The notes beneath the pieces are model-generated. The model was not told the DNA's origin, made no database searches, and saw nothing but the letters and a program-made list of their open reading frames with translations. From the NCBI GenBank assembly GCA_964584755.1, contig CAZPAV010000009.1, positions 358 to 64,357 on the forward strand: a stretch of DNA of 64,000 nt, read 5' to 3'. Below, piece by piece: positions 12,846 through 49,081 of the stretch. The DNA is from an uncultured Acidimicrobiaceae bacterium (GTDB taxonomy: Bacteria; Actinomycetota; Acidimicrobiia; Spongiisociales; UBA5794). A program made the translations under genes and the position numbers. Each line of letters starts with the position of its first letter. Position 1 is the stretch's first letter.

Positions 12846-12866
12846 GGTACGGCGTATCATCGGCCG

Positions 12867-13400: not shown

Positions 13401-13408
13401 CGCTGGGG

Positions 13409-14796: not shown

Positions 14797-15438
14797 TCAC
14801 CCGGCCGGGAGGGCGCGCAGGAAGGTGAGGACCGCCCGACGGGTCGCCTCGCGGTAGCGGGGATGGGCCGCCTTCCAGTCCGTCTCCTGGAGCCAGAGGA
14901 GGAACATCCCGTCGATGATGGCCCGCACCACGTCGGCGGTCTCCTCCACGTCCCCGTCCGGGAAGACCCCTCGCGTCATCCCGAGACGGACGACGTCCCC
15001 GTACGTCGAGTTGACGATGGAGCGGAACGTGGCGTTGAGCTCGCCGAAGCGGTCCATCCGGGAGGCGTAGTCGAGGAGATCGAGGTAGAGCAGGTAGAAA
15101 CGACGGTTCGCGTCGGCGTCGAAGAAGATGGCGTCGATCATCGCCTCCACCTGCGCCTCGGGGGAGTCGGCGGTCGCCACCGCCCGGCGGATCCGCTCCG
15201 CGGTGCGCGAGAGCGCCCAGTGCATGGTGGCGAGGATGAAGCGGTCCCGCGTGGCGAAGTGGTAGAGGATGACCCCCTTGCTCACCCCGGCGCGATCGGC
15301 GATCTCCTGCAGGGAGACGCGGTGCACCCCGTCCTCGGTGAACGCCTGGTAGGCGGTGCGGACGAGACGGACCTGCTTGGGCGTCAGCTCACCGGGGCGG
15401 GCGACGTCGGCGTTGGGTTCGGTCGTGGTCGTGGCCAT
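14797..15438 (-). CDS. TetR/AcrR family transcriptional regulator
   Basis: HTH SLQEIADRAGVSKGVILYHF; GGAGG SD before ATG 15438. Confidence 0.92.
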   Translation of the reverse strand: MATTTTEPNADVARPGELTPKQVRLVRTAYQAFTEDGVHRVSLQEIADRAGVSKGVILYHFATRDRFILATMHWALSRTAERIRRAVATADSPEAQVEAMIDAIFFDADANRRFYLLYLDLLDYASRMDRFGELNATFRSIVNSTYGDVVRLGMTRGVFPDGDVEETADVVRAIIDGMFLLWLQETDWKAAHPRYREATRRAVLTFLRALPAG

Positions 15439-15455
15439 GTCGGCCTCCAAGCTAG

Positions 15456-18880: not shown

Positions 18881-19696
18881 TCACACCGCGGCCGGTTGCT
18901 TGCGGTCCACCTTCTGGAGCCGCAGGTGGGCGAGGAGCGCCGCGCCGTACGCTCCCGCGTAGTTTCCCATGTCGTCGGGGGGGACGAGGAATCCGAACCC
19001 GAGCTTCTCCTCGAGCACCTCGGCGACGAGGGGCACCCGGGTGAGGCCGCCGGTGAGGGCGCACGGCGGCTCGGGCCGAACCCGCTTGACGAGCTGGGCC
19101 GCCCGCCCCGCGAGCGCGGCCACCGCCCCGGCGCAGACGTCCTCGGCGCTCTCGCCGGCGGCGAGATGGTTGATGATCTCCGACTCGGCGAAGACGGCGC
19201 AGACGCTCGAGACGGGCACCGGCTTCTGCGCGGCTCCCGAGAGCTCGGCGATGGCTCCCACCTCGTGACCCATGTACCGGACCGTCTTCTGGAGGAAGGC
19301 GCCGGCGCCGGCGGCGCACTTGTCGTTGAGACGGAAGGCCCGCACCCGGCCGGTCTCGTCGAGCCGGATGGCCTTGACCGTCTGGCCGCCGGCGTCGAGC
19401 ACCGTCCGGACCTCGGGCAGGAGTCGGTGCACCGCGTAGGCGTGACAGGTGAGCTCGGTGACCGCGAGGTCTCGTTCGGGGACGGCGTGCCTCCCGAAGC
19501 CGGTCGTCGCGACGTAGGCGATGGCGGAGCGGTCGAGACCGGCGATCTCGAGGGTCTCGCTCAGGGCCTGCTCGGCGGCGCGGGGGAAGTTGTACCCGGT
19601 GAGTCGGCTCGAGCGGGCGACGATCGTCCCGTCCTCGTCGGCGATGACGGTCTTCGTGTAGCTCGATCCGAGGTCGATCCCTGCCGTGAGTGTCAT
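18881..19696 (-). CDS. bcrD: Class I benzoyl-CoA reductase ATPase subunit (BcrD/BadG-like)
   Basis: AGIDLGSSYTK, ATTGFGR, LNDKCAAGAG, SSVCAVFAESE, AGAYGAAL; ATGA overlap. Confidence 0.8.
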   Translation of the reverse strand: MTLTAGIDLGSSYTKTVIADEDGTIVARSSRLTGYNFPRAAEQALSETLEIAGLDRSAIAYVATTGFGRHAVPERDLAVTELTCHAYAVHRLLPEVRTVLDAGGQTVKAIRLDETGRVRAFRLNDKCAAGAGAFLQKTVRYMGHEVGAIAELSGAAQKPVPVSSVCAVFAESEIINHLAAGESAEDVCAGAVAALAGRAAQLVKRVRPEPPCALTGGLTRVPLVAEVLEEKLGFGFLVPPDDMGNYAGAYGAALLAHLRLQKVDRKQPAAV

Positions 19697-20511
19697 GACG
19701 TCCTTCCCCTCTCTGCCGAGGCACCGGTGAGGACCTGGTCGAGGGCGAACAGGGCCGCTCCGATGGCGCCGCAGTGCTGCGATTCCTCGCTCGTGTTCAC
19801 CGGGGAGTCGGTGAGCTCGGCGATGAGCTCGACCATGGCCGCGTTCCTCGCCACTCCACCGGTGAAGGTGATCTCCGGCTCGATGCCGACCCGCCGCAGC
19901 AGCGAGACGCTGCGGGAGGCGATGGCCCGATGCACGCCGAGGATGACGTCCTCCTGCTTGCGGCCTCGGGCGAGCCAGCCGAGGATCTCGGACTCGGCGA
20001 AGACGGTGCAGGTGGTGCTCATACGCACCGGGTGGGTGGCGGTGAGGGCGAGGGGTCCCAGCTCGTCGAGGGGCACCTCGAGGGCGTCGGAGGCGGCGCC
20101 GAGGAAGCGTCCGGTACCGGCGGCGCACTTGTCGTTCATGCAGAAGTCGACGACGCCGCCGTTCTCGTCGACCTTGATGGCCTTCGTGTCCTGTCCTCCG
20201 ACGTCGAGGACGGTTCGGGTCCCCGGGAAGAGGTACACCGCACCGCGGGCGTGGCAGGAGATCTCGGTGACCTGGGCGTCGCCGAACTCGATCCGGTACC
20301 GGCCGTATCCGGTGCCGACGATGAACCCCACCTCCTCGGTGGTGCGGCCCGCGTCGGCGAGCGCCATCTGGAACGCCCGCTCGCCGGACTCGTCGAGCCG
20401 CACCCCGGTGTCGGTGAGGGCTCGGCCGAGCACCCGCCGACTCCCGTCCATGATCACGGCCTTCGTCTGGGTGGAGCCGACGTCGACGCCGGCGACCAAC
20501 ATCTCGCTCAT
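19693..20511 (-). CDS. bcrA: Class I benzoyl-CoA reductase ATPase subunit (BcrA/BadF-like, short form)
   Basis: GVDVGSTQTK, GTGYGR, EISCHARG, DVGGQDTK, MNDKCAAGTG, TTCTVFAESE, FTGGVARN. Confidence 0.82.
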   Translation of the reverse strand: MSEMLVAGVDVGSTQTKAVIMDGSRRVLGRALTDTGVRLDESGERAFQMALADAGRTTEEVGFIVGTGYGRYRIEFGDAQVTEISCHARGAVYLFPGTRTVLDVGGQDTKAIKVDENGGVVDFCMNDKCAAGTGRFLGAASDALEVPLDELGPLALTATHPVRMSTTCTVFAESEILGWLARGRKQEDVILGVHRAIASRSVSLLRRVGIEPEITFTGGVARNAAMVELIAELTDSPVNTSEESQHCGAIGAALFALDQVLTGASAERGRTS

Positions 20512-20518
20512 GTCGCTC

Positions 20519-21823
20519 TCACCTCCCCGCCGTCACGCGGCGGCTCTCGAGGGACTCGAAGAACGCGTCGATCCGGTTCTTGAGCTGTGCCTCGGCCCAG
20601 AGTCGCGAGTCGACGAGATCGGACTGGATGAAGAGTCCGGGGGTGTCGTCGGCGCCCATGAGCCACTCTCGGGTGTCGGGCAGGCCCGTCGAGGTCGTCC
20701 GGCAGGACTTCACCCCGTGGTAGCAGATCCCGTCGATCGACCAGTCCCGGACCGCCTCGCGCTGCCACTCCTGGGAGAAGAAGATCCCGCTGAAAGACGG
20801 CTGGGCCGTGAGCACGATCTGCTCGGCGAGGCTCTCGATGGGACGCTCGAGGTCGTAGTGGATCCCACGATCGATGCCACCACCGGCGTACGACATGTAC
20901 TCGCTGGCGACGAAGACGCCGTTCCAGTCCTCGAAGAGGCCGACGAAGTCGCGGAAGTGCGAGTAGCAGGCGGTGCCGATGAGGAGGAGGCGGAACCGCT
21001 CGTCGGGAACGGCCCCGACGCCGTGGGCCACCCGCTCATCGAGCTCGGCGAGGGCGGTCTCCATGAATCGGGTCCCGCGGGGGTCGCCGCGGTAGATGTT
21101 GGCGATGCCCTGGTAGTTGATCCCCTCGGTGAGGGCGTTGAAGGGCGCAGGCCGGTGCTGGTTCGTCTTCATGATGGCCTGGTAGAGCTCCGACATGCGG
21201 TTGACCTCGCCCATGACGGCGCGCAGCTTGTCGATGTCGAAGCGTTGGCCTGTCTGCTCCTCGCAGAAGGTGATGAGCTCCCGCATCTGCTGCTCGACGT
21301 ACGCCTTGTCCTCGGCGAAGGTCCGGGTACCGGATCCGTACGCGAACCCCGAGCCGCGCCAGCCCGGGATGTCGAGGACGAACGTGGGCGTCCCGTACAT
21401 GCGCTCCCAGATCTCCGCCCACTTGATGTACGTGTTGCACATGTTCGTGGCGACCGTGAAGGCGGGTTGCGGGTACGTGCCCATGGGGTGGGCCCGGTCG
21501 GTGACGTGGAGGCCGACGTCGACCTTCACGTAGCCGCAGATGTCGGGGGAGTAGCCGTAGTCCTCGGCGGCCTCGAGGTACTGCATGGCCTTCCCCTTCA
21601 CCGCGGTCTGGAGGGCGGCGATCTCGGGGAAGCTCATGGGGATGTCGAAGGTGCTGAGGATCTCGGCCATGGATCCCATGACGAAGACGTTGGCCACGGG
21701 CCGGCCGCTCGTGGCGGCCTCGCTGAGCTCCTTCCACCACTCCTCGATGAGCTGGCGGCTCGCCCTCCGGGTGGTCCCGGCGAGCGCCAGAGGGGGACGA
21801 ATGGCGACGCGGCGTTCTTTCAT
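20519..21823 (-). CDS. bcrB: Class I benzoyl-CoA reductase beta subunit (BcrB/BadE-like)
   Basis: YSPDICGYVKVD, NMCNTYIKW, FDIDKLR, VKSC, SDLVDSR...KNRIDAFF. Confidence 0.82.
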   Translation of the reverse strand: MKERRVAIRPPLALAGTTRRASRQLIEEWWKELSEAATSGRPVANVFVMGSMAEILSTFDIPMSFPEIAALQTAVKGKAMQYLEAAEDYGYSPDICGYVKVDVGLHVTDRAHPMGTYPQPAFTVATNMCNTYIKWAEIWERMYGTPTFVLDIPGWRGSGFAYGSGTRTFAEDKAYVEQQMRELITFCEEQTGQRFDIDKLRAVMGEVNRMSELYQAIMKTNQHRPAPFNALTEGINYQGIANIYRGDPRGTRFMETALAELDERVAHGVGAVPDERFRLLLIGTACYSHFRDFVGLFEDWNGVFVASEYMSYAGGGIDRGIHYDLERPIESLAEQIVLTAQPSFSGIFFSQEWQREAVRDWSIDGICYHGVKSCRTTSTGLPDTREWLMGADDTPGLFIQSDLVDSRLWAEAQLKNRIDAFFESLESRRVTAGR

Positions 21824-21834
21824 GGTGCTCCTCC

Positions 21835-22998
21835 TCAGGCGAACTCGAACATCAGGGACTCGGCGAAGGTCTCGACCTCCATCTGGAACTGCTCGAAGAC
21901 GGTGGTCTTCTCCTCGAACTCGAGGACGAGGTGCGGGATCCCGGCCTCGTCGAGGGCCCGGCTGTACCCGACCTGCTCCTCGAGTCCCGGTTCGCACATC
22001 TTGGCGGCGGAGACGATGGCGGCCTCGGCCCCCGACTCCTCGATACGGCGGAGGAGCATCTCCTCCTTCGGCTTGCGGGGATCGCGCTGCACCGGGCTGT
22101 AGCTGGAGGTCTCCACGTAGGCACGGGCGAGGTCGGCGACCGGGTCGCCGTCGACGGGGACGTCCTCGGTGAGCCAGCGCAGGCCGATGAGGAGGTCGTC
22201 GTCGACGACGTAGCACACGTTCTGCAGGACGGCGAGCATGTCGATGGGGGGCTGCTCGCAGAAGCCGCCCTCGATGACGACCCGGATCTTGTCCTGGGGT
22301 CTGCGGTCCCGCTCCCGGATGAGGGGGAGGGCCCGGCGCAGGATCTCGTTGTGCTCCTCGCGCGGCATGACCCCGGCGGCCCGGGTGAGCGCGTACGCCT
22401 CCACGGCGTCGATGAGCCACGGCTGCTCCCGCTTGATCTGGTACAGCTCGCGGAGGAGGCGGCGGTTCTCGTTGAACACCGCGATGCTGTGGCGGAGGTC
22501 GTCGTCGGTGACCTTCCGACCGGCGAGGTCCTCGATGATCCCGAGGATGCGGCGGTACTCGTCGGTGAGGTACGGCAGGGCCTGGCGGGAGGTCGGGTTG
22601 TGGGGGTAGTAGAGGATCTGGCACTCCATCTCGGGGAAGTTGCGTGCCCAGACGCCGAGCGAGTGGCGGGCGGCGTCGCAGATGGGGTGGGTGACGAACA
22701 TGTCGAGGAAGTCGAGGCTCCCCGAGAGGGCGAGCTCGAGCCCGGAGCGGATGATGGAGCAGACGAACGCGGCGAACCGGGCGTCGGCCTGCCGGATCTG
22801 GACGGTGCTGTCGGCCCCCATGACCTTCACCGGGAGCACGCCGGCGGCGTGGGCGAGCTCCTCGGGGAAGTACACCTGGAAGTGCCCGAGGACCTTCCCG
22901 TCGGGATGCTCCTCGAGCCAGCGCCGGGCGGCGGGGTAGCGAGGGTCCTCCACGAGCACCCGGCAGTCGTCGATGATCCTCTCGAGTTCACTGGTCAT
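21835..22998 (-). CDS. bcrC: Class I benzoyl-CoA reductase gamma subunit (BcrC/BadD-like)
   Basis: AARRW, FVCSI, PICDA, EQPW, GGFCEQPP, CYVVDDD, KMCEPGL. Confidence 0.85.
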   Translation of the reverse strand: MTSELERIIDDCRVLVEDPRYPAARRWLEEHPDGKVLGHFQVYFPEELAHAAGVLPVKVMGADSTVQIRQADARFAAFVCSIIRSGLELALSGSLDFLDMFVTHPICDAARHSLGVWARNFPEMECQILYYPHNPTSRQALPYLTDEYRRILGIIEDLAGRKVTDDDLRHSIAVFNENRRLLRELYQIKREQPWLIDAVEAYALTRAAGVMPREEHNEILRRALPLIRERDRRPQDKIRVVIEGGFCEQPPIDMLAVLQNVCYVVDDDLLIGLRWLTEDVPVDGDPVADLARAYVETSSYSPVQRDPRKPKEEMLLRRIEESGAEAAIVSAAKMCEPGLEEQVGYSRALDEAGIPHLVLEFEEKTTVFEQFQMEVETFAESLMFEFA

Positions 22999-23012: not shown

Positions 23013-23061
23013 TGACTAACCGGTCAGTCAGAATCATGCCACGGGCATCCGCCGGCGACAA
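23013..23061 (-). promoter_or_regulatory. bcr operon promoter with overlapping palindromic (TetR-type) operator
   Basis: Minus strand TTGTCG(23061-56)-N17-CATGAT(23038-33); near-perfect palindrome TGACTAACCGGTCAGTCA at 23013-23030 covers the predicted start site. Confidence 0.75.
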
Positions 23062-23152: not shown

Positions 23153-24448
23153 ATGGAGACGACCTACTTCGCGCGTGAGACGGAGACGGCACCCGTCGAG
23201 CGCCTGCGCGAGATCCAGCTCACGAAGCTCAGGACGCTGCTGGAGACGATCCTGGGACGCAACCGGTTCTACACCGGGAAGCTCGCCGGCCTGGAGCCGG
23301 GGGACGTGCGTCGCGTGGAGGACCTGCGGGACCTCCCCTTCACCACGAAGGCCGAGCTCCTCGCGGCCCAGGAGGAGGGCGGAGGCTTCTCGACGAACGC
23401 CACCTTCTCCGAGAGGGCGTACACCCGCTTCCATCAGACCTCGGGCACCACCGGACGGCCCCTCCGCGTCTACGACACCGCGGAGAGCTGGGACTGGTGG
23501 GGGCGCTGTTGGGGCTACGTGCTCGCGGGCGCGGGACTCACCGCCGCGGATCGCCTCTTCGTGCCCTTCTCCTTCGGTCCGTTCATCGGGTTCTGGGCCG
23601 CGCTCGGCGGGGCCGAGAAGATCGGGGCCCTCATGATCCCCGGCGGAGGGCGCAGCTCCGTCCAGCGACTCGCCCTCATGGCCGAGCTCGGCGCGACCGC
23701 CATGTGCTGCACCCCCACCTACGCGCTCCGGCTCGCCGAGGTGGCTCGTGAGGAGGGGTTCGACCTGGACCGCATCCCCATGCGCCTCACCGTCCATGCC
23801 GGAGAGCCGGGGGCGAACGTCCCGGCGACGAAGGCCCGCATCGAGGCCGAGTGGGGGGCGAAGTGCTACGACCACGCCGGAGCCTCCGAGGTGGGCGCCC
23901 ACAGCTTCGAGTGCGAGGCCCAGCCGGGGGGGACCCACGCCATCGACAGCGAGTTCATCGTCGAGGTCGTCGATCCGACGAGCGGGGAGGCCGTGTCGCC
24001 GGGGGAGGAGGGGGAGCTCGTCGTGACCAACCTCGGTCGGGCGGGGTTCCCGGTGATCCGCTACCGCACCGGGGACGTGGTGCGGGTCGATGCGACGCCG
24101 TGCCCCTGCGGGCGGACCTTCACCCGGTTCGCCGGGGGGGTCATCGGCCGGGCCGACGACATGGTCGTGGTGCGAGGCGTCAACGTGTATCCGGGGGCCG
24201 TCGAGAACCTCGTCCGCGAGCACGAGGGGATCGACGAGTTCCGGGTGCGGGTGGTGCGGCACCGGGAGATGGCCGAGCTCGTCGTCGAGATCGAGTGCGC
24301 CCAGGGCGTCGACGCCACGGCGTCGTGCGCCGCGGTGACCGCCGCCTTCCGGGACCGTCTCGGGCTCACCCCGCGGGTGACGGCGGTGCCGCGGGACACG
24401 CTGCCGCGCTTCGAGCTCAAGGCGAAGCGATTCATCGTCGAGGGGTGA
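23153..24448 (+). CDS. paaK: Phenylacetate-CoA ligase (PaaK) family aryl-CoA ligase
   Basis: LPFTTK, QTSGTTG, YDHAGASEVG, RYRTGD, GRADDM...RGVNVYP. Confidence 0.85.
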   Translation: METTYFARETETAPVERLREIQLTKLRTLLETILGRNRFYTGKLAGLEPGDVRRVEDLRDLPFTTKAELLAAQEEGGGFSTNATFSERAYTRFHQTSGTTGRPLRVYDTAESWDWWGRCWGYVLAGAGLTAADRLFVPFSFGPFIGFWAALGGAEKIGALMIPGGGRSSVQRLALMAELGATAMCCTPTYALRLAEVAREEGFDLDRIPMRLTVHAGEPGANVPATKARIEAEWGAKCYDHAGASEVGAHSFECEAQPGGTHAIDSEFIVEVVDPTSGEAVSPGEEGELVVTNLGRAGFPVIRYRTGDVVRVDATPCPCGRTFTRFAGGVIGRADDMVVVRGVNVYPGAVENLVREHEGIDEFRVRVVRHREMAELVVEIECAQGVDATASCAAVTAAFRDRLGLTPRVTAVPRDTLPRFELKAKRFIVEG

Positions 24449-24988: not shown

Positions 24989-25552
24989 GTGGAACGCATC
25001 GTCGTGGGGATCTCGGGCGCGAGCGGCGCTGTCTACGGGATTCGGCTCCTGGAGGTCCTGCGGGACGTCCCGGAGGTGGAGACCCACCTCGTGGTCAGCG
25101 GAGGTGCCCGTCGCACCATCGAGCTCGAGACGGACCTGACCCCGGAGGCGGTGGAGGGCCTCGCCGACCACGTCTACCCGCTCCGCGACCTGGCGGCGCC
25201 CATCTCCTCGGGATCCTTCCGGACGGCGGGCATGGTGGTGGCCCCCTGCTCGATGAAGACCCTCTCCGGCATCGCCAACTCCTACACGGACACCCTCTTG
25301 ACCCGGGCCGCCGACGTGACGCTGAAGGAGCGGCGGCGGCTGGTCCTCCTGCCCCGGGAGACGCCGCTCCATCTCGGGCACGCCCGTCTCATCGTCCACG
25401 CCATCGAGCTGGGTGCCATCGTCATGCCGCCGACACCCGCCTTCTACCACCACCCCCGGAGCATCGAGGACATCGTCGATCACACGGTGAGTCGGGTCCT
25501 CGACCTCTTCGGCATCGACAACGACCTCGTGGAGCGCTGGCAGGGCGCTTGA
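24989..25552 (+). CDS. ubiX: Flavin prenyltransferase UbiX
   Basis: VGISGASG, APISSGS, APCSMKTL, RAADVTLKERR, RETP, MPPTPAFY. Confidence 0.96.
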   Translation: MERIVVGISGASGAVYGIRLLEVLRDVPEVETHLVVSGGARRTIELETDLTPEAVEGLADHVYPLRDLAAPISSGSFRTAGMVVAPCSMKTLSGIANSYTDTLLTRAADVTLKERRRLVLLPRETPLHLGHARLIVHAIELGAIVMPPTPAFYHHPRSIEDIVDHTVSRVLDLFGIDNDLVERWQGA

Positions 25553-25566
25553 CGTCCCGCGATCCG

Positions 25567-25613
25567 GTTCGCTACGGTGTTCGCTATCACGAACGAGGTT
25601 CTCTATAGCGAAA
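25567..25613. promoter_or_regulatory. IclR-type operator repeats upstream of the IclR-ubiD-HAD-pps operon
   Basis: GTTCGCTATCACGAAC (25579-94), GTTCTCTATAGCGAAA (25598-613), plus half-site GTTCGCTAC (25567-75). Confidence 0.65.
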
Positions 25614-25704
25614 CCATTGGAGGACCGTCGACGGCCCCGGTCGTCGATCCACCGGGCCCGGGGAGGGACCGGTCAGGACCCCGAGGGGAGGAGGGGAGGA
25701 GCGC

Positions 25705-26481
25705 ATGTCGGCACGGGCGTCGGCCGTGGAACGGGCCATCCAGATCCTTCGCTCCTTCGAGGAGCAGGACGAGTTCTCCCTGACCGAGCTCGTCGAGCGG
25801 CTCGACCTCAACAAGAGCACCGCCCACGGGATCCTCCGCACCCTCACCGACCACCGCTTCCTCAGCCGCGACGAGGGGACCCTGCGGTACCGGCTCGGTC
25901 CGGCGCTCATCCGGCTCGGCCACCTCGCCCACGAGCAGATCGACGTGCGCCGCGTGGCGCGACCCTTCATGGAGTCCCTCATGGAGGAGACCCGCAAGTC
26001 GGTCCTCCTCGGCACCTTCCACGACGGCCGGATCACGATCATCGACAAGGTGGACCCGGTGGGCACGCTCCACGTCTCGGCCGCCATCGGCCAGCAGATC
26101 CCACTGTCGGCCGGCTCCTTCGGACGCGTGTTCCTCGCCTGGCTCCCCGAGGAGGAGGTCGACGCCCTCCTCGAGGAGCACGGCCTCGAGGCCTTCACCC
26201 CGTCCTCGATCGTCGACCCCGAGGCGTACAAGCGCGAGCTCGAGCGGGTGCGACGCCTCGGATACGCCGTCGACGACCAGGAGGAGTACCTCCTCGGCGT
26301 GCGGGCGGTCTCGGTGCCGCTCATGGACCATCGCGAGGTGGTCGCCGCGCTGACGATCGTGGGTTTCACCTCCCGCCGCGACGATCAGCCCAGCGGCGTG
26401 ACGATCAAGGCCATCACCCGGGCGGGGTGTGAGATCTCGAAGCGGCTCGGTGCCGAGACCGACGCCCGCGAAGGACCCTGA
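25705..26481 (+). CDS. IclR family transcriptional regulator
   Basis: SAVERAIQIL, LNKSTAHGILRTL, YRLGP, GYAVDDQE, AVSVP. Confidence 0.95.
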   Translation: MSARASAVERAIQILRSFEEQDEFSLTELVERLDLNKSTAHGILRTLTDHRFLSRDEGTLRYRLGPALIRLGHLAHEQIDVRRVARPFMESLMEETRKSVLLGTFHDGRITIIDKVDPVGTLHVSAAIGQQIPLSAGSFGRVFLAWLPEEEVDALLEEHGLEAFTPSSIVDPEAYKRELERVRRLGYAVDDQEEYLLGVRAVSVPLMDHREVVAALTIVGFTSRRDDQPSGVTIKAITRAGCEISKRLGAETDAREGP

Positions 26482-26509
26482 ACGACGACCCGAGAGGAGA
26501 GGGGAGCGC

Positions 26510-27946
26510 ATGCCGTTCGACGACCTGCGGTCGTTCATCGACCGACTCGACGAGGAGGGCCAGCTGGAGCGGATCCGCCGCGAGGTGGACTGGAACCTCG
26601 AGCTGAGCCACGTCGCCAAGCTCAACGAGGAGCGCCAGGGTGGTGGCTCGGCCCTCCTGTTCGAGAACGTCAAGGAGTACCCGGGGCACCGGGTCTTCAT
26701 CAGCGCCCTCACCGCGCGGGAGCGACTCGCCCTCGCGCTCGACATGCCTCAGGACACGAGCCTCATGCACCTCTCCCAGGAGTGGGTGGAGCGCATCCAC
26801 GACAACAGGGTCCCCCCCAAGGAGGTCGCCACCGGCCCGTGCAAGGAGAACGTCCTCCGCGGCGAGGACGCGGACATCACCCGCCTGCCCAGCCCGTGGT
26901 TCTACCCGGGCGACGGGGGGCGGTACCTGGGCACCGCCGGGTACCTCATCACCCGCAACCTCGAGACGGGGCGCCTCAACCTCGGCACGTACCGCGCCAT
27001 GGTCGGCTCGGCGCACGAGCTCTGCATCTACATGATCAAGGCCAAGGACGGCGAGATCGACTTCCGGGCGTACCAGGAGGCCGGCATCCCCATGCCGGTG
27101 GCGTACGTCTCCGGGTGCGACCCGACGCTCTTCCTCTGCTCGAGCACCCTCTTCGGACTCGACGAGAGCGAGTACGACGTCGCCGGGGCGCTGCGCGGCG
27201 CCCCCGTGGAGGTCGTCCGCGCGGAGACCTCCGACCTCCTCGTCCCGGCCGCCGCGGAGTGGGTCGTGGAGGGGGAGATCGTCCCCGGCGAGACCCGCCC
27301 GGAGGGCCCCTTCGGCGAGTACACCGGCCACTACTCGGGGAAGGGCGACGAGGAGCAGTACTTCATCCGGGTGAAGGCGATCACCCACCGCGACGACCCG
27401 ATCCTCTGGTCGACGACGGTGGGCCGGCCCACGACCGACACCCATATGATCATGAGCGTCAACCGCACCGCGTCCCTGTGGAACGACCTCCGGCGCATGC
27501 AGATCCCCGGCATCAGGGCCGTCTACGGTCCGCCGGCCTCGGCGGGGAGGATGCTCGTCATCATCTCCATGAAGCCCATGTACCACGGTCACTCCACGCA
27601 GGTCGGCCTGGCGGCGTTCGCCTCCACGACGGGGAACTACGGCCTGAAGACGGTCATCCTCGTCGACGAGGACATCGACCCGGAGAACATGGATCAGGTC
27701 CTCTACGCGCTGAGCTTCAAGTACCAGCCGGAGTTCGGCACCCAGATCCTCCGCCGGGGGCGCTCCACGCCGCTCGACCCCTCCCTGCCCCGATCGGACC
27801 GGTTCATGACCTCGCGCATCATCATCGACTGCACCACGCCGTACGAGTGGGGCGAGGAGGACCGGCCGCGCAAGATCGAGCTCGACGAGGCGATGGCGGC
27901 GTACGTCCGCGAGCACTGGGACGAGTACTTCGCCGGGGGGAGGTGA
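26510..27946 (+). CDS. ubiD: UbiD-family (de)carboxylase, phenylphosphate carboxylase beta (PpcB)-like
   Basis: EVDWNLELSHVAKL, DGGRYLGT, EGPFGEYTG, GRPTTDTHM, RGRSTPLDP, TSRIIID..PYEW. Confidence 0.88.
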   Translation: MPFDDLRSFIDRLDEEGQLERIRREVDWNLELSHVAKLNEERQGGGSALLFENVKEYPGHRVFISALTARERLALALDMPQDTSLMHLSQEWVERIHDNRVPPKEVATGPCKENVLRGEDADITRLPSPWFYPGDGGRYLGTAGYLITRNLETGRLNLGTYRAMVGSAHELCIYMIKAKDGEIDFRAYQEAGIPMPVAYVSGCDPTLFLCSSTLFGLDESEYDVAGALRGAPVEVVRAETSDLLVPAAAEWVVEGEIVPGETRPEGPFGEYTGHYSGKGDEEQYFIRVKAITHRDDPILWSTTVGRPTTDTHMIMSVNRTASLWNDLRRMQIPGIRAVYGPPASAGRMLVIISMKPMYHGHSTQVGLAAFASTTGNYGLKTVILVDEDIDPENMDQVLYALSFKYQPEFGTQILRRGRSTPLDPSLPRSDRFMTSRIIIDCTTPYEWGEEDRPRKIELDEAMAAYVREHWDEYFAGGR

Positions 27947-28803
27947 GCGCCACGAGGACCGGCGGCATGGAGCGGGTCGAGGGCATCGTCTTCGACATCG
28001 ACGGAACGGTGGCCCGCGGCCGCTCCGTCCTCCCCGGCGTGCTCGAGACGCTCGCCGAGCTGCGTCGGCGCGGCATCCGCTACGCCTTCCTCACCAACGA
28101 CAACACCCACCGGGTGGGGTTCTGGGTGGAGCGCCTCGCCGCCATGGGGATCGCCGCGACCCCCGAGGAGGTCGTGACCGCCGCCCTCGTCGCCGCCGAG
28201 GCGACCGCCCAGCTCCATCCCGGCAGGAGGGTCCTCCCGGTCGGGGACGTGGGGCTCCGGGAGGCGCTCGCCGCCAAGGGTCTCGAGCTCGTGGGGTACG
28301 ACGACGCCGAGCGGGCCGAGGTCGTGGTGATGGGGAAGGACCCGGAGTTCGACCAGCGGCGGCTCGCCGTCGTCTGCCGGGCCATCTGGAACGGCGCCGA
28401 GTTCCTCGCCACCAACCGGGATCCGCGCGTCCCCACCGCGGACGGCTTCGCGCCGGGGACGGGGCCCATGGTCGAGGCGGTGGCGTACGCCACGGGTCGG
28501 GAGCCCCTCGTCACCGGCAAGCCCTCGGCGTGGGCGGGGAGGATGGCCATGGAGCTCATCGGCGTGGCACCCGAACGTGGCGCCGTGGTCGGCGACCAGC
28601 TCGCCACCGACATCGCCATGGGGCGCCACGCCGGTCTGTGGACGGTGCTCGTCCTCTCCGGCGCGACTCGGGCCGGGGAGGTGGACGCCGTCCCGGAGGA
28701 CCTCCGTCCCCACGTCGTGCTCGACGACGTGACGGGCCTCGTCCCGTTGCTCGACGGGAGCACGGCGGTGGCGGAGGGATCGCGCAGGAGAGGGAGGGAG
28801 TGA
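27943..28803 (+). CDS. HAD-IIA (NagD-like) phosphatase
   Basis: FDIDGT, FLTND, ATNRD, GKPS, VGDQLATDI; overlaps both neighbours. Confidence 0.9.
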   Translation: MSATRTGGMERVEGIVFDIDGTVARGRSVLPGVLETLAELRRRGIRYAFLTNDNTHRVGFWVERLAAMGIAATPEEVVTAALVAAEATAQLHPGRRVLPVGDVGLREALAAKGLELVGYDDAERAEVVVMGKDPEFDQRRLAVVCRAIWNGAEFLATNRDPRVPTADGFAPGTGPMVEAVAYATGREPLVTGKPSAWAGRMAMELIGVAPERGAVVGDQLATDIAMGRHAGLWTVLVLSGATRAGEVDAVPEDLRPHVVLDDVTGLVPLLDGSTAVAEGSRRRGRE

Positions 28804-29891
28804 TGGAGCGGTACATCATCGACTTCGCACGCTGCGACGACTCGTGCCTGAGCCGGGTCGGCGGCAAGAGCGTCGGTCTCGGCACCATGATCCGCGCCGG
28901 CGTACCGGTCCCGCCGGGCTTCGCGGTGACGACGAACGCGTACCTCGCCGCGATCCGCGACGCGGGGATCGAGGCGGCCATCGCCGACCTCCTCGCCGGT
29001 GTGCACCCGGAGGACGTCGACGCCCTCGAGGAGATCAGCGTCGGCATCCGGGAACGGATCGAAGCGTCGGCCATCCCCTCCGAGGTCGAGGCCGCGGTGC
29101 GCGACGCCTACGAGGAGCTCTCCGGCCGGTGTGGGTATCCCGACGGGGACCTCCCCGTAGCGGTCCGCTCCTCGGCGACCGCCGAGGATCTCCCCGGCGC
29201 GAGCTTCGCCGGCCAGCAGGACACCTACCTCTGGATCGTCGGCGCCGACGCGGTGCTGACCCACGTGCGGCGCTGCTGGTCGAGCCTGTACACGGCACGC
29301 GCCATCGCCTACCGGATCGAGCAGGGGTTCGCCCACACCCAGGTGGCGATGAGCGTCTGTGTGCAGAAGATGGTGAACGCCCGGGCCGCGGGAGTGATGT
29401 TCACCCTGAACCCCTCCAACGGCGACCGGTCCAAGGTGGCCATCGACGCCGCCTGGGGACTCGGGGAGGCGGTGGCGTCCGGTGAGGTGACGCCCGACAA
29501 CTACCTCGTCGACAAGATCGTGCTCGAGATCGTGCGCAAGACGGTCTCCCCCAAGGCCGTGGAGTACCGGCCCGACGTCGCGGAGCGGCGGATGGTCCGG
29601 CGCGAGGTGGAACCGGCGCGTCGTGAGGCGCCCTGTCTCACCGACGAGGAGGTGCTCGCCCTGGCTCGCTACGGGCGGCTCATCGAGGGCCACCACGGTC
29701 GTCCCCAGGATCTCGAGTGGGCCGTGGACGCCGACCTCGAGCCGCCCGAGAACATCGTGCTGCTCCAGGCCCGACCCGAGACGGTGTGGAGCACCCGGCA
29801 GCGGGAGAACGTGACCTCCGCGGAGGGCTCGACGCTCGATCACATCGTCGCCAACCTCCTCACCGGGGTGCGACTGCGGGGAGGCGGGTGA
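28803..29891 (+). CDS. ppsB: Phenylphosphate synthase subunit B-like (ATP-binding, PEP-synthase N-terminal domain)
   Basis: VGGKS, VPPGF, AVRSSATAEDLPGASFAGQQDTYL, GEVTPD, LQARPETVWS, C-terminal IVANLLTG; no His or PEP domain. Confidence 0.85.
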   Translation: MERYIIDFARCDDSCLSRVGGKSVGLGTMIRAGVPVPPGFAVTTNAYLAAIRDAGIEAAIADLLAGVHPEDVDALEEISVGIRERIEASAIPSEVEAAVRDAYEELSGRCGYPDGDLPVAVRSSATAEDLPGASFAGQQDTYLWIVGADAVLTHVRRCWSSLYTARAIAYRIEQGFAHTQVAMSVCVQKMVNARAAGVMFTLNPSNGDRSKVAIDAAWGLGEAVASGEVTPDNYLVDKIVLEIVRKTVSPKAVEYRPDVAERRMVRREVEPARREAPCLTDEEVLALARYGRLIEGHHGRPQDLEWAVDADLEPPENIVLLQARPETVWSTRQRENVTSAEGSTLDHIVANLLTGVRLRGGG

Positions 29892-30040
29892 CCGACCACG
29901 GCCGGGTCCCCCGGAGGACCCGAGGAGCGAAGGACGCGGCGAGAGGGAGGACGCGATGAGCTGACCGGGGGGAACGAGGAGAGGAGCGGGCCCGGAGCGC
30001 CCGCGCGGCAGACAGGAACAGCGATCGTGAGGAGAGGGCG

Positions 30041-31861
30041 ATGAGCGACACCAGGTTCCCCAGTCCCTTCGAGGTGCCGACCCCCGAGGGATGCGAGGGG
30101 TGGCAGGACCTGTATCCGTACTACTACCTGTTCAGCGAGGAGCGTCGCGAGTTCGAGGAATCGAAGTTCTGGTTCTTCGACGGCATGCACCACCCGGAGG
30201 TGCTCTACCCGTTCGACACCATCACCGCGGAGAGCTGGTGGGTGGCGCTCGGAGAGATGAACTCCCGGGTGTACATCGTGCCCCCGGCTCTCGGCATCGA
30301 CCAGCGCGTCCTCAACGGCCGGCTCTACATCAGCGCCAACGCCATCATGGACGAGGAGGTCGTCGGGGCGCGCGTCCAGCACTTCATGGAGCGCGCCGGG
30401 TACTACTACGAGCACTGGGACGAGCTGTACGAGCGCTGGCAGGAGAAGGCGCGCCAGACCGTCGAGGAGCTCAAGGCCGTCGAGGTGAGGCCCCTCCCCG
30501 AGATGGAGGACCTCGAGACGGTTCGGGCCGGACGGGGACTCACCTCGGCGTACGACCTGCTCGTGGCGTACAACCGGGTCATCGAGAACATGCACAAGAT
30601 GTGGCATCTCCACTTCGAGTTCCTCAACCTGGGGTACGCCGCCTACCTGACCTTCTTCGGGCTCTGCAAGCAGCTCTTCCCCGACATCCCCGACCAGACG
30701 GTGGCGCGGATGGTGGCGGGGATCGACGTGTTGCTCTTCCGCCCCGACGCCGAGCTGAAGAAGCTCGCGAAGAAGGCGGTCGAGCTGGGCGTCGCCGACG
30801 CCTTCAAGCAGCACACCGATCCGGCGGAGGTCATCGACGTCCTGGAGCAGAGCGAGGCGGGACGGCGGTGGATCGCCGAGCTCGAACGGGTGCGGGACCC
30901 CTGGTTCTACTTCTCGACGGGCTCCGGCTTCTACCACCACCACAAGACGTGGATCAACGACGAGACCTACCCCTTCAGCGGCATCGCCGACTACATCGGG
31001 CGCATCGAGGCCGGGGAGAGCATCGAGCGGCCGCTCGAGGAGGTGAAGGCGGAGCGGGACCGGATCTCGGCGGAGTACGCGGCGCTGCTCGACGGCGACG
31101 ACCTGAAGAACTTCGAGCAGCAGCTCGCCCTGGCCCGGACGGTGTTCCCCTTCATCGAGGACCACAACTTCTACGTGGAGCACTGGCACCACGCGGTGTT
31201 CTGGAACAAGATGCGGGAGTTCGGGCAGATCTTCGTCGACGCCGGCTTCTTCGAGGAGGTGGACGACATGTTCTACCTCCATCGCTACGAGGTGCAGGCC
31301 GCGCTGTACGACCTCATCTCCTCCTGGGGGGTGGGGACGCCGGCACGCGGCCCGGGGTACTGGCCCAAGGAGATCACCCGGCGTAAGGAGCTCTTCGAGC
31401 GCCTCTCCCGGTGGACGCCGGTCCCGGCCCTCGGGGAGCCGCCGGAGGTCGTCACCGAGCCGTTCACGATCATGCTCTGGGGGATCACCACCGACTCCAT
31501 CCAGAACTGGTTGGGGATCGGCGGCGACGAGGACGCCGAGTACGACCTGAAGGGGTTCGCCGGGTCGCCGGGGACCGTCGAGGGCCCGGCCCGGGTCATC
31601 CTCAGCGCCGACGAGCTGCACCAGGTCCAGGAGGGCGAGGTCCTCGTCTGCCCGATCACGAACCCGAGCTGGGGCCCCGCGTTCTCGAAGATCGCGGCCG
31701 CGGTCACCGACATCGGGGGCATGATGTCCCATGCCTCGATCGTCTGCCGCGAGTACGGCGTCCCCGCCGTCGTCGGGACCGGGTTCGCCACCCAGCGGAT
31801 CCAGACCGGCCGGCGGGTCCGGGTCGACGGCTCCGCGGGGACGGTGACGATCCTCGACTGA
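30041..31861 (+). CDS. ppsA: Phenylphosphate synthase subunit A-like (phospho-His)
   Basis: GWQDLYPYYY, HFEFLNLGYAAY, HNFYVEHW, EPFTIMLWG, TDIGGMMSHASIVCREYG. Confidence 0.87.
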   Translation: MSDTRFPSPFEVPTPEGCEGWQDLYPYYYLFSEERREFEESKFWFFDGMHHPEVLYPFDTITAESWWVALGEMNSRVYIVPPALGIDQRVLNGRLYISANAIMDEEVVGARVQHFMERAGYYYEHWDELYERWQEKARQTVEELKAVEVRPLPEMEDLETVRAGRGLTSAYDLLVAYNRVIENMHKMWHLHFEFLNLGYAAYLTFFGLCKQLFPDIPDQTVARMVAGIDVLLFRPDAELKKLAKKAVELGVADAFKQHTDPAEVIDVLEQSEAGRRWIAELERVRDPWFYFSTGSGFYHHHKTWINDETYPFSGIADYIGRIEAGESIERPLEEVKAERDRISAEYAALLDGDDLKNFEQQLALARTVFPFIEDHNFYVEHWHHAVFWNKMREFGQIFVDAGFFEEVDDMFYLHRYEVQAALYDLISSWGVGTPARGPGYWPKEITRRKELFERLSRWTPVPALGEPPEVVTEPFTIMLWGITTDSIQNWLGIGGDEDAEYDLKGFAGSPGTVEGPARVILSADELHQVQEGEVLVCPITNPSWGPAFSKIAAAVTDIGGMMSHASIVCREYGVPAVVGTGFATQRIQTGRRVRVDGSAGTVTILD

Positions 31862-33058: not shown

Positions 33059-34033
33059 TCAGCGGGCCCCGGCGAGGTCGGTGAGGAGGCGGCGGACGTA
33101 GACGGGGATCATGCGCTTGCGGTACCGCGAGGTGAGGTCGGTGTTCCCCATGGGTCGCACCGCCTTGCCGGCGAGCGCTCCCGCCTCCTCCACGAGCTCC
33201 GCGGACCAGGGGTGGGCGGTGAGGAGCTCCTCGGCGGCGGTGGCCCGCACCGGGGCGGAGGCGACCGCTCCGAGGACGATCCGGGCCTCCCGACAGCGGT
33301 CCCTGGCGAAGCGCAGGGCGGCGGCGACGCCGAGGATGGGGAAGTCGATCGAGCCTCGGCGGCGGAGCTTGCGATAGCCGGCGCGACGGTCGCCGAGGGA
33401 TGGGACGACGACCTCGACGAGGATCTCCTCGGGCTCCTTGGCGAGGTGGGCCATGCCGTCGTCGCGATAGAGCTCCGCCACCGGGAGGGTCCGTGTTCCG
33501 TCGGGTCCGGCGAGCCGGACGGTCGCCTCGAGGGCGACGAGGACCGGGGCGAGATCGGAGGAGAGGACCGCCCAGCACTGCCGCTTCGCCGGCGCCACCC
33601 AGCACGTCTCGCCCCCGGCCTTCAGGCAGGGCTCCGCCGCCTGCCGCCACAGGTCGGTGACGTTGAGCCAGTGGCAGCGGGTGTCGACGCAGAGGTTCCC
33701 ACCGACCGTTCCCCGGTTGCGGAGCTGCGGGGAGGCGACGAGGGCGGCGGCCGCGGCGAGGGCCTCGGGGACGTCGGGGGAGGAGGCGACGGTCGCCAGG
33801 GTGGTGAGCGTCCCGAGACGGACCGTGCCGTCCTCCGCGGTGGTGATGCCGGCGAGCCCGGGGACCGCGGCGAGGGAGACGACGGTGCCGGCGGGGAACT
33901 GGCGGCGCTTGAGGTTGGGGTAGAGGTCGGTGCCGCCGGAGACGACGACGGCGTCGTCGTGCGCGGCGAGGAGGGCGAACACCTCGGCGAGCCCCGTCGG
34001 CCGGTGGTAGGCGAAGGCGGGGAGGCGCATCAT
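33059..34033 (-). CDS. hcrB: 4-hydroxybenzoyl-CoA reductase beta-like subunit (FAD plus [4Fe-4S] insert)
   Basis: GGTDLYPNLKR, GTVGGNLCVDTRC-x15-CLK-x5-C-x8-C four-Cys insert, SIDFP. Confidence 0.82.
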   Translation of the reverse strand: MMRLPAFAYHRPTGLAEVFALLAAHDDAVVVSGGTDLYPNLKRRQFPAGTVVSLAAVPGLAGITTAEDGTVRLGTLTTLATVASSPDVPEALAAAAALVASPQLRNRGTVGGNLCVDTRCHWLNVTDLWRQAAEPCLKAGGETCWVAPAKRQCWAVLSSDLAPVLVALEATVRLAGPDGTRTLPVAELYRDDGMAHLAKEPEEILVEVVVPSLGDRRAGYRKLRRRGSIDFPILGVAAALRFARDRCREARIVLGAVASAPVRATAAEELLTAHPWSAELVEEAGALAGKAVRPMGNTDLTSRYRKRMIPVYVRRLLTDLAGAR

Positions 34034-36423: not shown

Positions 36424-36884
36424 GCGCCGCTCCCCGCCGCCGCCGCCACGGCGCGGACGATGCTGAGGTATCCGGTGCAGCGACACATGTTCCCGGCGAG
36501 CGCCTCCCGGATCTCCGTCTCGGACGGATGGGGGACGCGGTCGAGGAGAGCCTTGGCGGTGAGGATCATCGCCGGGGTGCAGTAGCCGCACTGGGAGGCG
36601 CCGAAGGCGGCGAAGCTCTCCTGGAGCGGGTGGGGGTGGGCGATCGTGCCGAGCCCCTCGATGGTGGTGACCTCGTGGTCGGCGGCGTCGACGGCGAGGA
36701 GGAGGCAGGAGAGCTGGGGGACGCCATCGACGAGGACGGTGCAGGCGCCGCACTCCCCGAGCTCGCAGCCGTGCTTCGTGCCGGTGAGTTCGAGGTCCTC
36801 ACGGAGCACCTCGAGGAGCGTCCGGTGGGGGGGAGCGACGAGCTCGTAGCGATCTCCGTTGACCACCAACGCCAGCGGCTCCAT
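36420..36884 (-). CDS. hcrC: 4-hydroxybenzoyl-CoA reductase gamma-like subunit (2x[2Fe-2S])
   Basis: GTKHGCELGECGACTV, SCL, QCGYCTP, GNMCRCTGY; order C-A-B. Confidence 0.82.
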   Translation of the reverse strand: MEPLALVVNGDRYELVAPPHRTLLEVLREDLELTGTKHGCELGECGACTVLVDGVPQLSCLLLAVDAADHEVTTIEGLGTIAHPHPLQESFAAFGASQCGYCTPAMILTAKALLDRVPHPSETEIREALAGNMCRCTGYLSIVRAVAAAAGSGA

Positions 36885-39278: not shown

Positions 39279-39279
39279 G

Positions 39280-45886: not shown

Positions 45887-46425
45887 GCCGCCGCCTCGAC
45901 CTGCGTCTCGCCGGGGCCGGCGGCCAGGGCGTCGCCCTCGCCGGCCGCATCCTCGCCGAGGCGGCGTTGCGCTCAGGGCGCGAGGCCGCCTACTCGCAGG
46001 CGTACGGGCCCGCCTCCCGGGGCGGGGCCAGCCACGCCGACGTCGTGATCGCCGCAGGCGAGATCGGCTGGCCCCTCGCCGAGTCCATCGGCGTGCTCGT
46101 CGCGGTTTCGGGGGCGGCGTACGCGAAGTACGCTCCCGGGGTGGAAGCCGGGACGACGGTCGTCGCCGACACCGAGGCGATCGACCCCGAGACCCCCACC
46201 GCGGGGACCCTCCGCTCCTTCCCGATCGTGGCCACGGCCCGGCGGATCGGCGGGGGGCCGATCCTCAGCGGCGTGGTCGCCCTCGGGGTCCTCCAGGGCC
46301 TCGTCGGCCTCGTCGACGAGGCCGCCCTCGAGGAGGCGCTCGCCTCTCGGGTCCCGTCCGACCGGCGCGAGATGAACCTGCGCGCCCTGGCCGAGGGGCG
46401 CCTGCTGGCGAACGGAGGTCGATGA
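45883..46425 (+). CDS. korC: 2-oxoacid:ferredoxin oxidoreductase gamma (KorC-like)
   Basis: AGAGGQGV, SQAYGPASRGG, MNLRALAEG. Confidence 0.88.
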   Translation: MSRRLDLRLAGAGGQGVALAGRILAEAALRSGREAAYSQAYGPASRGGASHADVVIAAGEIGWPLAESIGVLVAVSGAAYAKYAPGVEAGTTVVADTEAIDPETPTAGTLRSFPIVATARRIGGGPILSGVVALGVLQGLVGLVDEAALEEALASRVPSDRREMNLRALAEGRLLANGGR

Positions 46426-49068: not shown

Positions 49069-49081
49069 GGAGGTCGAGAAG

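Follow-up and report, generated by a model that had tools for sequence, protein, structure and literature searches.

Introduction

In facultative anaerobes, the breakdown of aromatic compounds without oxygen passes through class I benzoyl-CoA reductases, which act as its gatekeepers and are also of interest as biological Birch reductants. The present work concerns four genes that very probably encode an enzyme of this class, carried by a stretch of 64,000 nucleotides (positions 358 to 64,357 of contig CAZPAV010000009.1, GenBank assembly GCA_964584755.1; the whole stretch is called the window hereafter) from an uncultured Acidimicrobiaceae bacterium. Class I enzymes comprise the BCR (benzoyl-CoA reductase), MBR (methyl-BCR) and BZD types (Fuchs et al. 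2025, PMC11971306). Enzymes of the BCR and MBR types form permanent heterotetramers, while for the BZD type the dimers are believed to come together only for a short time (PMC11971306). Tiedt et al. 2018 (cited in PMC11971306) is the work on the MBR enzyme of Thauera chlorobenzoica.

An original prediction, made from the letters of the window, had described the locus as a compact class I benzoyl-CoA reductase and had proposed that it represents a distinct subclass. We compared its four subunits with the solved and modelled representatives of each type, and examined the catalytic residues, the phylogeny and the gene neighbourhood.

The four reductase genes

The window has a GC content of 72 % and about 95 % GC at third codon positions; because of this composition, raw lists of open reading frames are cluttered by spurious overlapping frames, and genes were called with a codon-position GC filter and inspection of start sites. 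Four intact, tightly packed genes lie on the minus strand in the order gamma-beta-alpha-delta, which corresponds to C-B-A-D. This order and the lengths of the two ATPases, 272 and 271 aa, are exactly as the original prediction had them. Each gene starts with ATG, preceded by a purine-rich, Shine-Dalgarno-like stretch. Gaps of 11 nt and 7 nt separate gamma from beta and beta from alpha, and the stop of alpha overlaps the start of delta by 4 nt, which suggests translational coupling of the two ATPases.

This compact operon encodes two paralogous catalytic subunits with HGD-D domains and two different ATPases of the BcrAD_BadFG family, the first closest to BcrA/MbdQ and the second to BcrD/MbdP (Table 1). 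From its homologues, gamma would be the electron-transfer subunit of the catalytic dimer, and beta is predicted to be the substrate-binding subunit that holds the active site. The Pfam domains and the Mbd matches described below bear out the proposal that the locus encodes a BCR-family enzyme of class I whose two ATPase subunits differ from each other.

Relationship to known class I reductases

The subunits were searched against Pfam domains, against NCBIfam equivalog models with their own cut-offs and, one by one, against the sequences of the PDB. For every subunit the top PDB match is the 3-methylbenzoyl-CoA reductase MbdNOPQ (9G87, 9GAI, 9GAL, 9GBA). Gamma matches MbdN (9g87_B) with 469 bits and 54 % identity over 381 aa, beta matches MbdO (9g87_A) with 375 bits and 44 % identity over 416 aa, alpha matches MbdQ (9gai_D) with 345 bits and 59 % identity, and delta matches MbdP (9gai_C) with 241 bits and 47 % identity over 263 aa. 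The four subunit lengths are nearly equal as well, with 387, 434, 272 and 271 aa in the window for 388, 445, 269 and 273 aa in MbdN, MbdO, MbdQ and MbdP. Both ATPases align end to end with MbdQ and MbdP, as plain ATPases without an N-terminal extension. Since the solved MbdQ and MbdP chains have 269 and 273 residues, a pair of ATPases of about 270 aa is a known property of the MBR type, and the compactness that had seemed a distinguishing novelty is not new. The distinct new subclass likewise has to be given up, as all four subunits are closest to Mbd and the MBR type has already been named and studied biochemically.

The MBR type has no equivalog model of its own in NCBIfam. The best-scoring models for gamma and beta are those of the Thauera-type BcrC and BcrB, below cut-off: gamma, beta, alpha and delta score 294, 185, 224 and 140 bits on BcrC, BcrB, BcrA and BcrD (TIGR02263, TIGR02260, TIGR02259, TIGR02261) against cut-offs of 421, 487, 578 and 313. 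Alpha matches only positions 220-432 of the 432-position BcrA model, hence the N-terminal half of BcrA, a part of about 220 residues, is missing from alpha. The BzdQ model has 293 positions, and these two model lengths agree with the earlier statement that BcrA and BzdQ exceed a plain activase domain. Scores on the bzd-type models BzdN, BzdO and BzdQ are lower still (132, 106 and 203 bits against 454, 449 and 380), and in the PDB search BzdN and BzdO reach 132 and 102 bits.

The gene order is a difference from the MBR type and a likeness to the Thauera type (BcrCBAD/BadDEFG). Judged by its scores and identities, the enzyme is neither of the Thauera type, to which gamma is only 33-37 % identical, nor of the Azoarcus BZD type. 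Very probably it is an aryl-CoA (benzoyl-CoA) reductase of class I and of the MBR type, and belongs with the radical enzymes of the BCR/HAD family. As a member of this known type it is new and moderately divergent, and its uncultured host is unusual: an Acidimicrobiia-like actinobacterium, whereas the host of Mbd is a denitrifying betaproteobacterium. Recognition of the MBR type prevents a false claim of novelty and supplies a structural template (9GAI/9G87). Among metagenome-assembled genomes (MAGs) from phyla of soil, sediment, mats and vents, the MBR-type four-gene block is extremely common, and its annotation there often goes no further than '2-hydroxyacyl-CoA dehydratase family'.

Public annotation of the gamma homologues is inconsistent. 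They are named 'benzoyl-CoA reductase subunit C' at JGI, and '2-hydroxyacyl-CoA dehydratase family protein' or 'hypothetical protein' at NCBI.

Cluster ligands and active-site residues

The structure of BzdNO (PMC11971306) served as reference for the catalytic residues, and conservation in beta was followed through 67 environmental beta subunits, MbdO and HadB. Cys96, Cys129 and Cys374 of beta align with Cys95, Cys128 and Cys380 of BzdO, the ligands of the water-bearing [4Fe-4S] cluster, and are invariant in the 67 homologues. Tyr97 and Tyr298, which bind the thioester in BzdO, have Tyr98 and Tyr309 of beta as their aligned counterparts; these two tyrosines of beta and Glu67, which belongs to an FPE motif, are invariant in all sequences of the comparison. 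We infer that Glu67 is equivalent to Glu65 of BzdO, whose region lies outside the alignment shown. The three cysteines and the thioester-binding tyrosines are thus shared with the BZD type (BzdNOPQ of Aromatoleum sp. CIB, PDB 8S02).

Position 132 of beta, which corresponds to the catalytic His131 of BzdO, differs from that enzyme: it is Tyr in the window and in 67/67 environmental sequences, and Phe in MbdO. Position 128 is Met in the window, Met or Ala in the environmental sequences and Tyr in MbdO, and position 377 (Leu383 of BzdO) is Thr in the window, Thr or Val in the environmental sequences and Val in MbdO. The Cys/Glu/Tyr core is identical to that of MbdO, while positions 128, 132 and 377 differ. 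Residues 128 and 132 look like a swapped pair with respect to MbdO, and this swap could underlie a specialisation for methylated substrates. The replacements at these two positions (Tyr132 for Phe and Met128 for Tyr) are the only hint of a specificity other than that of Mbd.

Gamma shares three universal cysteines, Cys80, Cys107 and Cys335, with all types, and a fourth, Cys247 in FCEQPP, is common to the MBR and Thauera types only. Its identity to the BZD type is 29 %, and the ligands of the [8Fe-9S] double-cubane cluster of BzdN (Cys36, Cys263 and Cys293) are replaced in it as in MbdN, with Gln41 standing for Cys36 of BzdN. The pattern of cysteine ligands in gamma and beta is that of Mbd. The three motifs pointed out earlier as Thauera-like were all found, FCEQPP at gamma 246, CYVVDDD at gamma 262 and DLVD.R at beta 402 (as DLVDSR). 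The two gamma motifs are a likeness to the Thauera type, as they also occur in P0144, a sequence that passes the Thauera-type BcrC model. MbdN contains FCETPP and CYVVDDD, and in this motif comparison FCEQPP and CYVVDDD were found in neither BzdN nor HadC.

Each ATPase carries a nucleotide-binding motif of the form DxGS(T/S)xxK and two cysteines: alpha has VDVGSTQTK, Cys129 in DKCAAGTG and Cys168 in TTCTVFAESE, and delta has IDLGSSYTK, Cys127 and Cys166. Taken as a whole, the residue pattern fits a functional MBR-type enzyme, for which the cofactors and the coupling to ATP would be as follows. By homology, alpha and delta would form a heterodimer with a bridging [4Fe-4S] cluster. This cluster would be loaded by reduced ferredoxin, itself probably regenerated by the neighbouring 2-oxoacid:ferredoxin oxidoreductases. 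Hydrolysis of ATP would lower the potential of the electron, which would pass to the [4Fe-4S] cluster of gamma and on to the water-ligated, three-Cys [4Fe-4S] cluster of beta, where the CoA-bound aromatic ring would be reduced to cyclohexa-1,5-diene-1-carbonyl-CoA.

Phylogeny and distribution

A search with gamma against 1.84 billion representatives at 50 % identity yielded 326 proteins at E<=1e-30. The best of them, P0121, is 63 % identical to MbdN and 53 % identical to the gamma subunit of the window, and the BcrC cut-off was reached by 0/10 of the best representatives. It is reached by P0144 (640 bits), P0155 (518) and P0150 (421). A neighbour-joining tree was built with Kimura distances from 131 gamma-type sequences, with 100 bootstraps on a subset of 62; its clades were labelled by the NCBIfam cut-offs, so that the Thauera type is marked by these three anonymous sequences, which pass TIGR02263. 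In this tree the family of the window is monophyletic (bootstrap 100/100) and groups with the Mbd clade (77/100). The Thauera-type clade (99/100) stands apart, and BzdN and HadC are distant. Gamma subunits of the window family are 48-54 % identical to MbdN and P0121 and 28-38 % identical to the Thauera-type clade. Members of the latter average only 43 % identity among themselves; by this measure, the distance between the window and Mbd does not exceed that between accepted members of a single type.

The tree supplies part of the phylogeny that the original prediction had called for. It includes Mbd, BzdN, HadC and Thauera-type references, and it leaves out MbrCBAD (4-methylbenzoyl-CoA reductase), the tetrahydronaphthoyl-CoA (THNCoA) reductases, 3-hydroxybenzoyl-CoA reductase, T. 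aromatica BcrCBAD and R. palustris BadDEFG.

Among 8000 candidates scored, 6245 are homologues of gamma at E<=1e-10, and the best 120 (69-77 % identical) all derive from metagenomes or MAGs. In a species-representative genome set, 564 stretches encode relatives of the reductase. The best 80, all of them MAGs, were compared with the window and with Mbd, and all locus counts given below refer to them. Acidimicrobiia, Gaiellales and other Actinomycetota are found at 68-76 %, followed at 58-65 % by loci of Armatimonadota, Clostridia, Dormibacterota, Gemmatimonadota, Chloroflexota, Planctomycetota, Terriglobia and Bacteroidota. The window's own subclade consists of loci L001-L019. Most loci of Gemmatimonadota and Chloroflexota are as close to Mbd or closer (gamma 59-70 %, alpha 65-77 %, delta up to 65 %). 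Because many loci match Mbd equally well or better, MbdNOPQ is embedded in one large environmental family, of which the window represents an actinobacterial branch.

Compared with its counterparts in MAGs of Actinomycetota and Acidimicrobiia, the GroEL encoded in the window shows 84-92 % identity. DNA of the reductase is present in metagenome runs from hydrothermal vents and microbial mats, and an identical gamma gene lies on a 4.5-kb JGI contig. A tblastn search of gamma against the PLSDB plasmids gave 9 records with 25-32 % identity, all with generic annotations.

Gene neighbourhood and proposed pathway

Housekeeping genes at the flanks of the window delimit an aromatic island at about 14.8-51.6 kb, whose features are collected in Table 1.

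Table 1 Features of the reductase locus and of the surrounding island (window coordinates)
Feature	Coordinates	Strand	Remarks
Gamma subunit, BcrC/MbdN-like, 387 aa	22998..21835	-	HGD-D 230 bits (Pfam)
Beta subunit, BcrB/MbdO-like, 434 aa	21823..20519	-	HGD-D 225 bits (Pfam)
Beta residues 128 and 132	~21428-21442	-	swapped-looking pair relative to MbdO
Alpha ATPase (ATPase 1), MbdQ/BcrA-like, 272 aa	20511..19693	-	BcrAD_BadFG 230 bits (Pfam)
Delta ATPase (ATPase 2), MbdP/BcrD-like, 271 aa	19696..18881	-	BcrAD_BadFG 176 bits (Pfam)
18-bp palindrome TGACTAACCGGTCAGTCA	23013..23030	.	perfect arms; 15-32 nt upstream of gamma start
MenB/BadI/Oah-like crotonase, 321 aa	17831..18796	-	candidate ring-opening beta-oxoacyl-CoA hydrolase
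Two-subunit family I CoA-transferase, 285 + 253 aa	16211..17826	-	Pfam CoA_trans
BadH-like SDR (short-chain dehydrogenase/reductase) dehydrogenase, 247 aa	15456..16199	-	BadH model 269 bits, cut-off 431
TetR-family regulator, operon end	14797..15450	-	Pfam TetR_N + TetR_C_6
PaaK-family aryl-carboxylate-CoA ligase, 431 aa, divergent	23153..24448	+	AMP-binding + AMP-binding_C_2
UbiX, IclR regulator, UbiD, HAD-IIA phosphatase, PpsB-like, PpsA-like	24989..31861	+	phenol activation/carboxylation-like
ORF of 157 aa directly after the PpsA-like gene	31866-32339	+	gene-like codon bias
4-Hydroxybenzoyl-CoA reductase (4-HBCR)-like Mo enzyme	gamma 36884..36420, alpha 36423..34030, beta 34033..33059	-	
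PrpF-like isomerase, BbsB-like thiolase and DUF35/OB-fold partner	37036-39720	-	
HMGL-like (homocitrate/isopropylmalate synthase-like) gene, then IOR-like alpha + beta	39947-43923	+	
Two 2-oxoacid:ferredoxin oxidoreductase systems	41259..46425	+	IOR-like alpha + beta; three-subunit OFOR
TetR, family III CoA-transferase, enoyl-CoA hydratase, SDR	46422..49816	+	hydratase: candidate dienoyl-CoA hydratase
Family III CoA-transferase (succinate-glutarate-like) and homoaconitase-like large/small pair	within 47033-51579	+	

Downstream of the reductase genes, the 321-aa crotonase scores 205 bits on the NCBIfam Oah model (partial match) and 203 bits on BadI (full length), both below cut-off, and its best PDB matches are MenB enzymes. 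The family I CoA-transferase matches no NCBIfam family at E<=1e-10. For the 247-aa SDR the best NCBIfam model is BadH, a 2-hydroxycyclohexanecarboxyl-CoA dehydrogenase. A TetR-family regulator alongside hydratase, dehydrogenase and hydrolase genes is a likeness to the mbd cluster, whose genes are controlled by the TetR-type repressor MbdR (PMC4424350). The regulator at the end of the operon was considered as an MbdR orthologue; MbdR (4uds) is its third PDB match, and the score of 42 bits is insufficient for that assignment. The reductase operon and the CoA-ligase gene diverge from a common intergenic region, which holds the palindrome TGACTAACCGGTCAGTCA, the sole copy in the window where 0.04 would be expected by chance, and a candidate for a TetR or IclR operator.

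The divergently transcribed genes begin with the CoA ligase, which scores 263 and 223 bits on PaaK models, far below their cut-offs, and they also include a PNPOx-like protein. UbiX passes its family cut-off, and UbiD scores 426 bits on phenyl_P_beta (phenylphosphate carboxylase beta; cut-off 469). The PPDK_N protein has 363 aa, and the phosphoenolpyruvate-utilising protein has 606 aa and scores 910 bits on the PRK08296 family. In Thauera, phenylphosphate carboxylase comprises two subunits of the UbiD type plus a small KdsC-like one. The carboxylation-like cluster of the window has one UbiD-type subunit and a 286-aa phosphatase of the HAD-IIA kind (NagD/PGP-like), and is possibly a variant carboxylase. 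The ORF of 157 aa stands at a position that could be that of a PpsC-type accessory protein; it gave no Pfam or NCBIfam match and no match to a CBS domain.

The 4-HBCR-like enzyme consists of three subunits with Mo, FAD and [2Fe-2S], and its adjoining subunit genes overlap by 4 nt. On the 4-HBCR models, which are the best models for alpha and beta, alpha scores 863 bits (cut-off 995), beta 277 (cut-off 405) and gamma 168. The FAD subunit (beta) contains a Cys-rich insertion of about 40 residues (CVDTRCHW...C...C...C) within FAD_binding_5. The peripheral enzymes of the island do not reach equivalog cut-offs; those passing their own cut-offs are UbiX (family), IOR alpha (683 bits) and OFOR alpha (555 bits). 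The IOR-like beta subunit carries a fused 2x[4Fe-4S] domain, and the CxxCxxCxxxCP motif occurs in the window only at 43732 and 43825. The set of HMGL-like and IOR-like genes is a candidate for a dedicated low-potential electron-donor system. The PrpF-like, thiolase, CoA-transferase and homoaconitase-like genes may form a lower pathway over dicarboxylates (pimelate or glutarate type).

From these family assignments, on which every step of it depends, the following pathway can be proposed. Phenol would be converted to phenylphosphate by the PpsAB-like proteins, and phenylphosphate to 4-hydroxybenzoate by UbiD/UbiX with the phosphatase-like protein. The CoA ligase would then form 4-hydroxybenzoyl-CoA, from which the Mo enzyme would remove the hydroxyl group to give benzoyl-CoA. 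The reductase would produce the dienoyl-CoA, followed by hydration, oxidation and hydrolytic ring opening through the adjacent crotonases and SDRs.

Synteny across related loci

The four reductase genes are colinear in 67-80/80 loci, and their synteny with the crotonase, SDR and TetR genes extends across phyla. The BadI/Oah-like crotonase lies beside the reductase in 50/80 loci, at up to 87 % identity. Homologues of the hydratase flank the reductase in 50/80 loci and SDR homologues do so in 34/80; the BadH-like SDR is present in 32/80, and TetR adjoins in 19/80. The family I CoA-transferase is co-located in 14/80 loci, from Actinomycetota and Dormibacterota clades, and 4-HBCR-like genes are linked to the reductase in 8-9/80.

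Individual relatives repeat larger parts of the island. The CoA ligase has the same position in L005, L010 and L016 (69-71 % identity), and in L016, an Acidimicrobiia MAG, the whole ligase-UbiX-IclR-UbiD-HAD arrangement recurs. The second module of TetR, CoA-transferase, hydratase and SDR is found entire in L011 and L014 (57-66 % identity). In MAGs of Gemmatimonadota and Chloroflexota (L050, L067, L068, L049, L064), the HMGL-IOR set lies just downstream of the reductase. Several of the PrpF-like, thiolase, CoA-transferase and homoaconitase-like genes are co-conserved with the reductase in L001, L005, L011 and L014.

Substrate and alternative functions

The original prediction had left the substrate range of the enzyme as unknown, and to the letter this stands; the choice is narrowed by the neighbourhood, which favours benzoyl-CoA with phenol or 4-hydroxybenzoate as its source. 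Owing to the surrounding phenylphosphate synthase-like, UbiD/UbiX, CoA-ligase and 4-HBCR-like genes, benzoyl-CoA formed from one of these two compounds is most likely the physiological substrate. Here the window differs from the known MBR type, since its neighbourhood does not point to 3-methylbenzoate or m-xylene. The MBR enzyme is reportedly active with 3-methylbenzoyl-CoA and other analogues. The coherent phenol/4-hydroxybenzoate island provides a testable substrate hypothesis for a whole environmental clade.

Several observations weigh against an MBR-type reductase of benzoyl-CoA at the centre of such a pathway. Beta is only 44 % identical to MbdO and has Tyr132 for Phe and Met128 for Tyr beside the active-site cluster, for which reason the substrate preference of Mbd is not transferable. 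The support of 77 % for the grouping with Mbd is moderate, in a neighbour-joining tree of a single subunit. The phenylphosphate carboxylase-like set is incomplete by comparison with the Thauera enzyme, its one UbiD being below cut-off and its phosphatase of another kind. A search of the window found no stand-alone ferredoxin gene, the only Fer4 domain being the one fused to the IOR-like beta subunit. The downstream enzymes resemble BadH and BadI and not Had and Oah, and the route after dearomatisation may be Thauera-like or Rhodopseudomonas-like. Finally, the actinobacterial clade is known from sequence only, every close relative being derived from a MAG.

An unlikely alternative is that the enzyme is specialised not for benzoyl-CoA itself but for one of its substituted forms (3-methyl-, 3-hydroxy-, halo- or another analogue). 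In favour of it, the nearest characterised enzyme is named a 3-methylbenzoyl-CoA reductase. Residues next to the pocket differ from those of MbdO, some being more polar (Tyr132, Thr377), and the genes for the BbsB-like thiolase with DUF35 and for the PrpF-, homocitrate-synthase- and homoaconitase-like proteins could serve a branched or substituted lower pathway. However, the product of the neighbouring 4-HBCR-like enzyme would be unsubstituted benzoyl-CoA, and no bss/bbs-type m-xylene genes or methyl-specific markers were identified. With Tyr132 in all 67 environmental beta subunits across phyla, it is the Phe of MbdO that looks specialised. A BCR-like, ATP-dependent reductase acting on a non-benzoyl CoA ester (for example a partly reduced bicyclic or alicyclic one, as for the tetrahydronaphthoyl-CoA reductases), or an enzyme with another radical function that has nothing to do with reducing monoaromatic rings, is very improbable: all four subunits are 44-59 % identical to a structurally characterised methylbenzoyl-CoA reductase, genes for a ring-opening crotonase, a hydratase and dehydrogenases are consistently syntenic with it, and the phenol/4-hydroxybenzoate genes are adjacent. 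What speaks for it is that all BCR equivalog scores are below cut-off, that the family is very widespread in phyla not known for anaerobic aromatic degradation, and that the tree was built without THNCoA reductase or 4-methylbenzoyl-CoA reductase sequences.

A 2-hydroxyacyl-CoA dehydratase with its activator(s) is suggested by the name that NCBI gives to many homologues and by the Pfam name HGD-D, and the ATPases equal HgdC/HadI in length and score 213-220 bits against them. HadBC/HadI and HgdAB/HgdC indeed share with the window the superfamily, the fold, an ATPase of about 270 aa and the three Cys, Glu and Tyr of the active-site subunit. Identities are only 22-27 %, though, and HadC and HadB reach 149 and 80 bits in the PDB search where MbdN and MbdO reach 469 and 375; on the HadB and HadC equivalog models the scores are 126 and 190 bits against cut-offs of 750 and 700. 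Branching within the dehydratases, which the original prediction had named as evidence against itself, was not seen, HadC being distant in the gamma tree. The dehydratases have one activator gene, for a homodimer, whereas here the operon has a fixed pair of distinct ATPase genes in at least 67 loci, and the context is not one of amino-acid fermentation. In mechanism, the dehydratases perform a dehydration with a recycled electron, in contrast to a stoichiometric reduction. The identity as a dehydratase is hardly credible and was rejected on scores, tree and operon structure.

The main interest of the locus is ecological and evolutionary: MBR-type operons abound in uncultivated phyla, and the Mbd enzymes characterised so far may represent a specialised side branch of that family. 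We know of the MBR type only from a few denitrifying betaproteobacteria. A tentative scenario, possible though not one on which we would insist, is that uncultivated Actinomycetota, Gemmatimonadota, Chloroflexota and Dormibacterota rely mainly on the MBR type as their class I aryl-CoA reductase, that its environmental form with the invariant Tyr132 is a plain benzoyl-CoA reductase, and that MbdO (Phe132/Tyr128) is a derived, methyl-specialised offshoot. If this were true, the window would hold a complete ATP-dependent anaerobic pathway from phenol to ring cleavage in an actinobacterium. To our knowledge, no cultured member of the Actinomycetota has been shown to use such a pathway.

Additional observations

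In some related loci of Gemmatimonadota and Planctomycetota (L033 2785-7000, L070 2622-7000 and L045 733-2900), the MBR-type operon is preceded, a few kb upstream, by a second and much more divergent BCR/HAD-like set. This set has a gamma-like gene with 30-32 % identity and two ATPase-like genes with 37-44 %, and these loci may encode two different ATP-dependent radical enzymes side by side.

Just outside the island, positions 9332-14794 of the window encode an ATP-grasp protein resembling L-amino-acid ligases, a transporter of the auxin-efflux family, a GNAT acetyltransferase and a PLP-dependent decarboxylase. This group looks like a small, unrelated cluster for amine or peptide modification.

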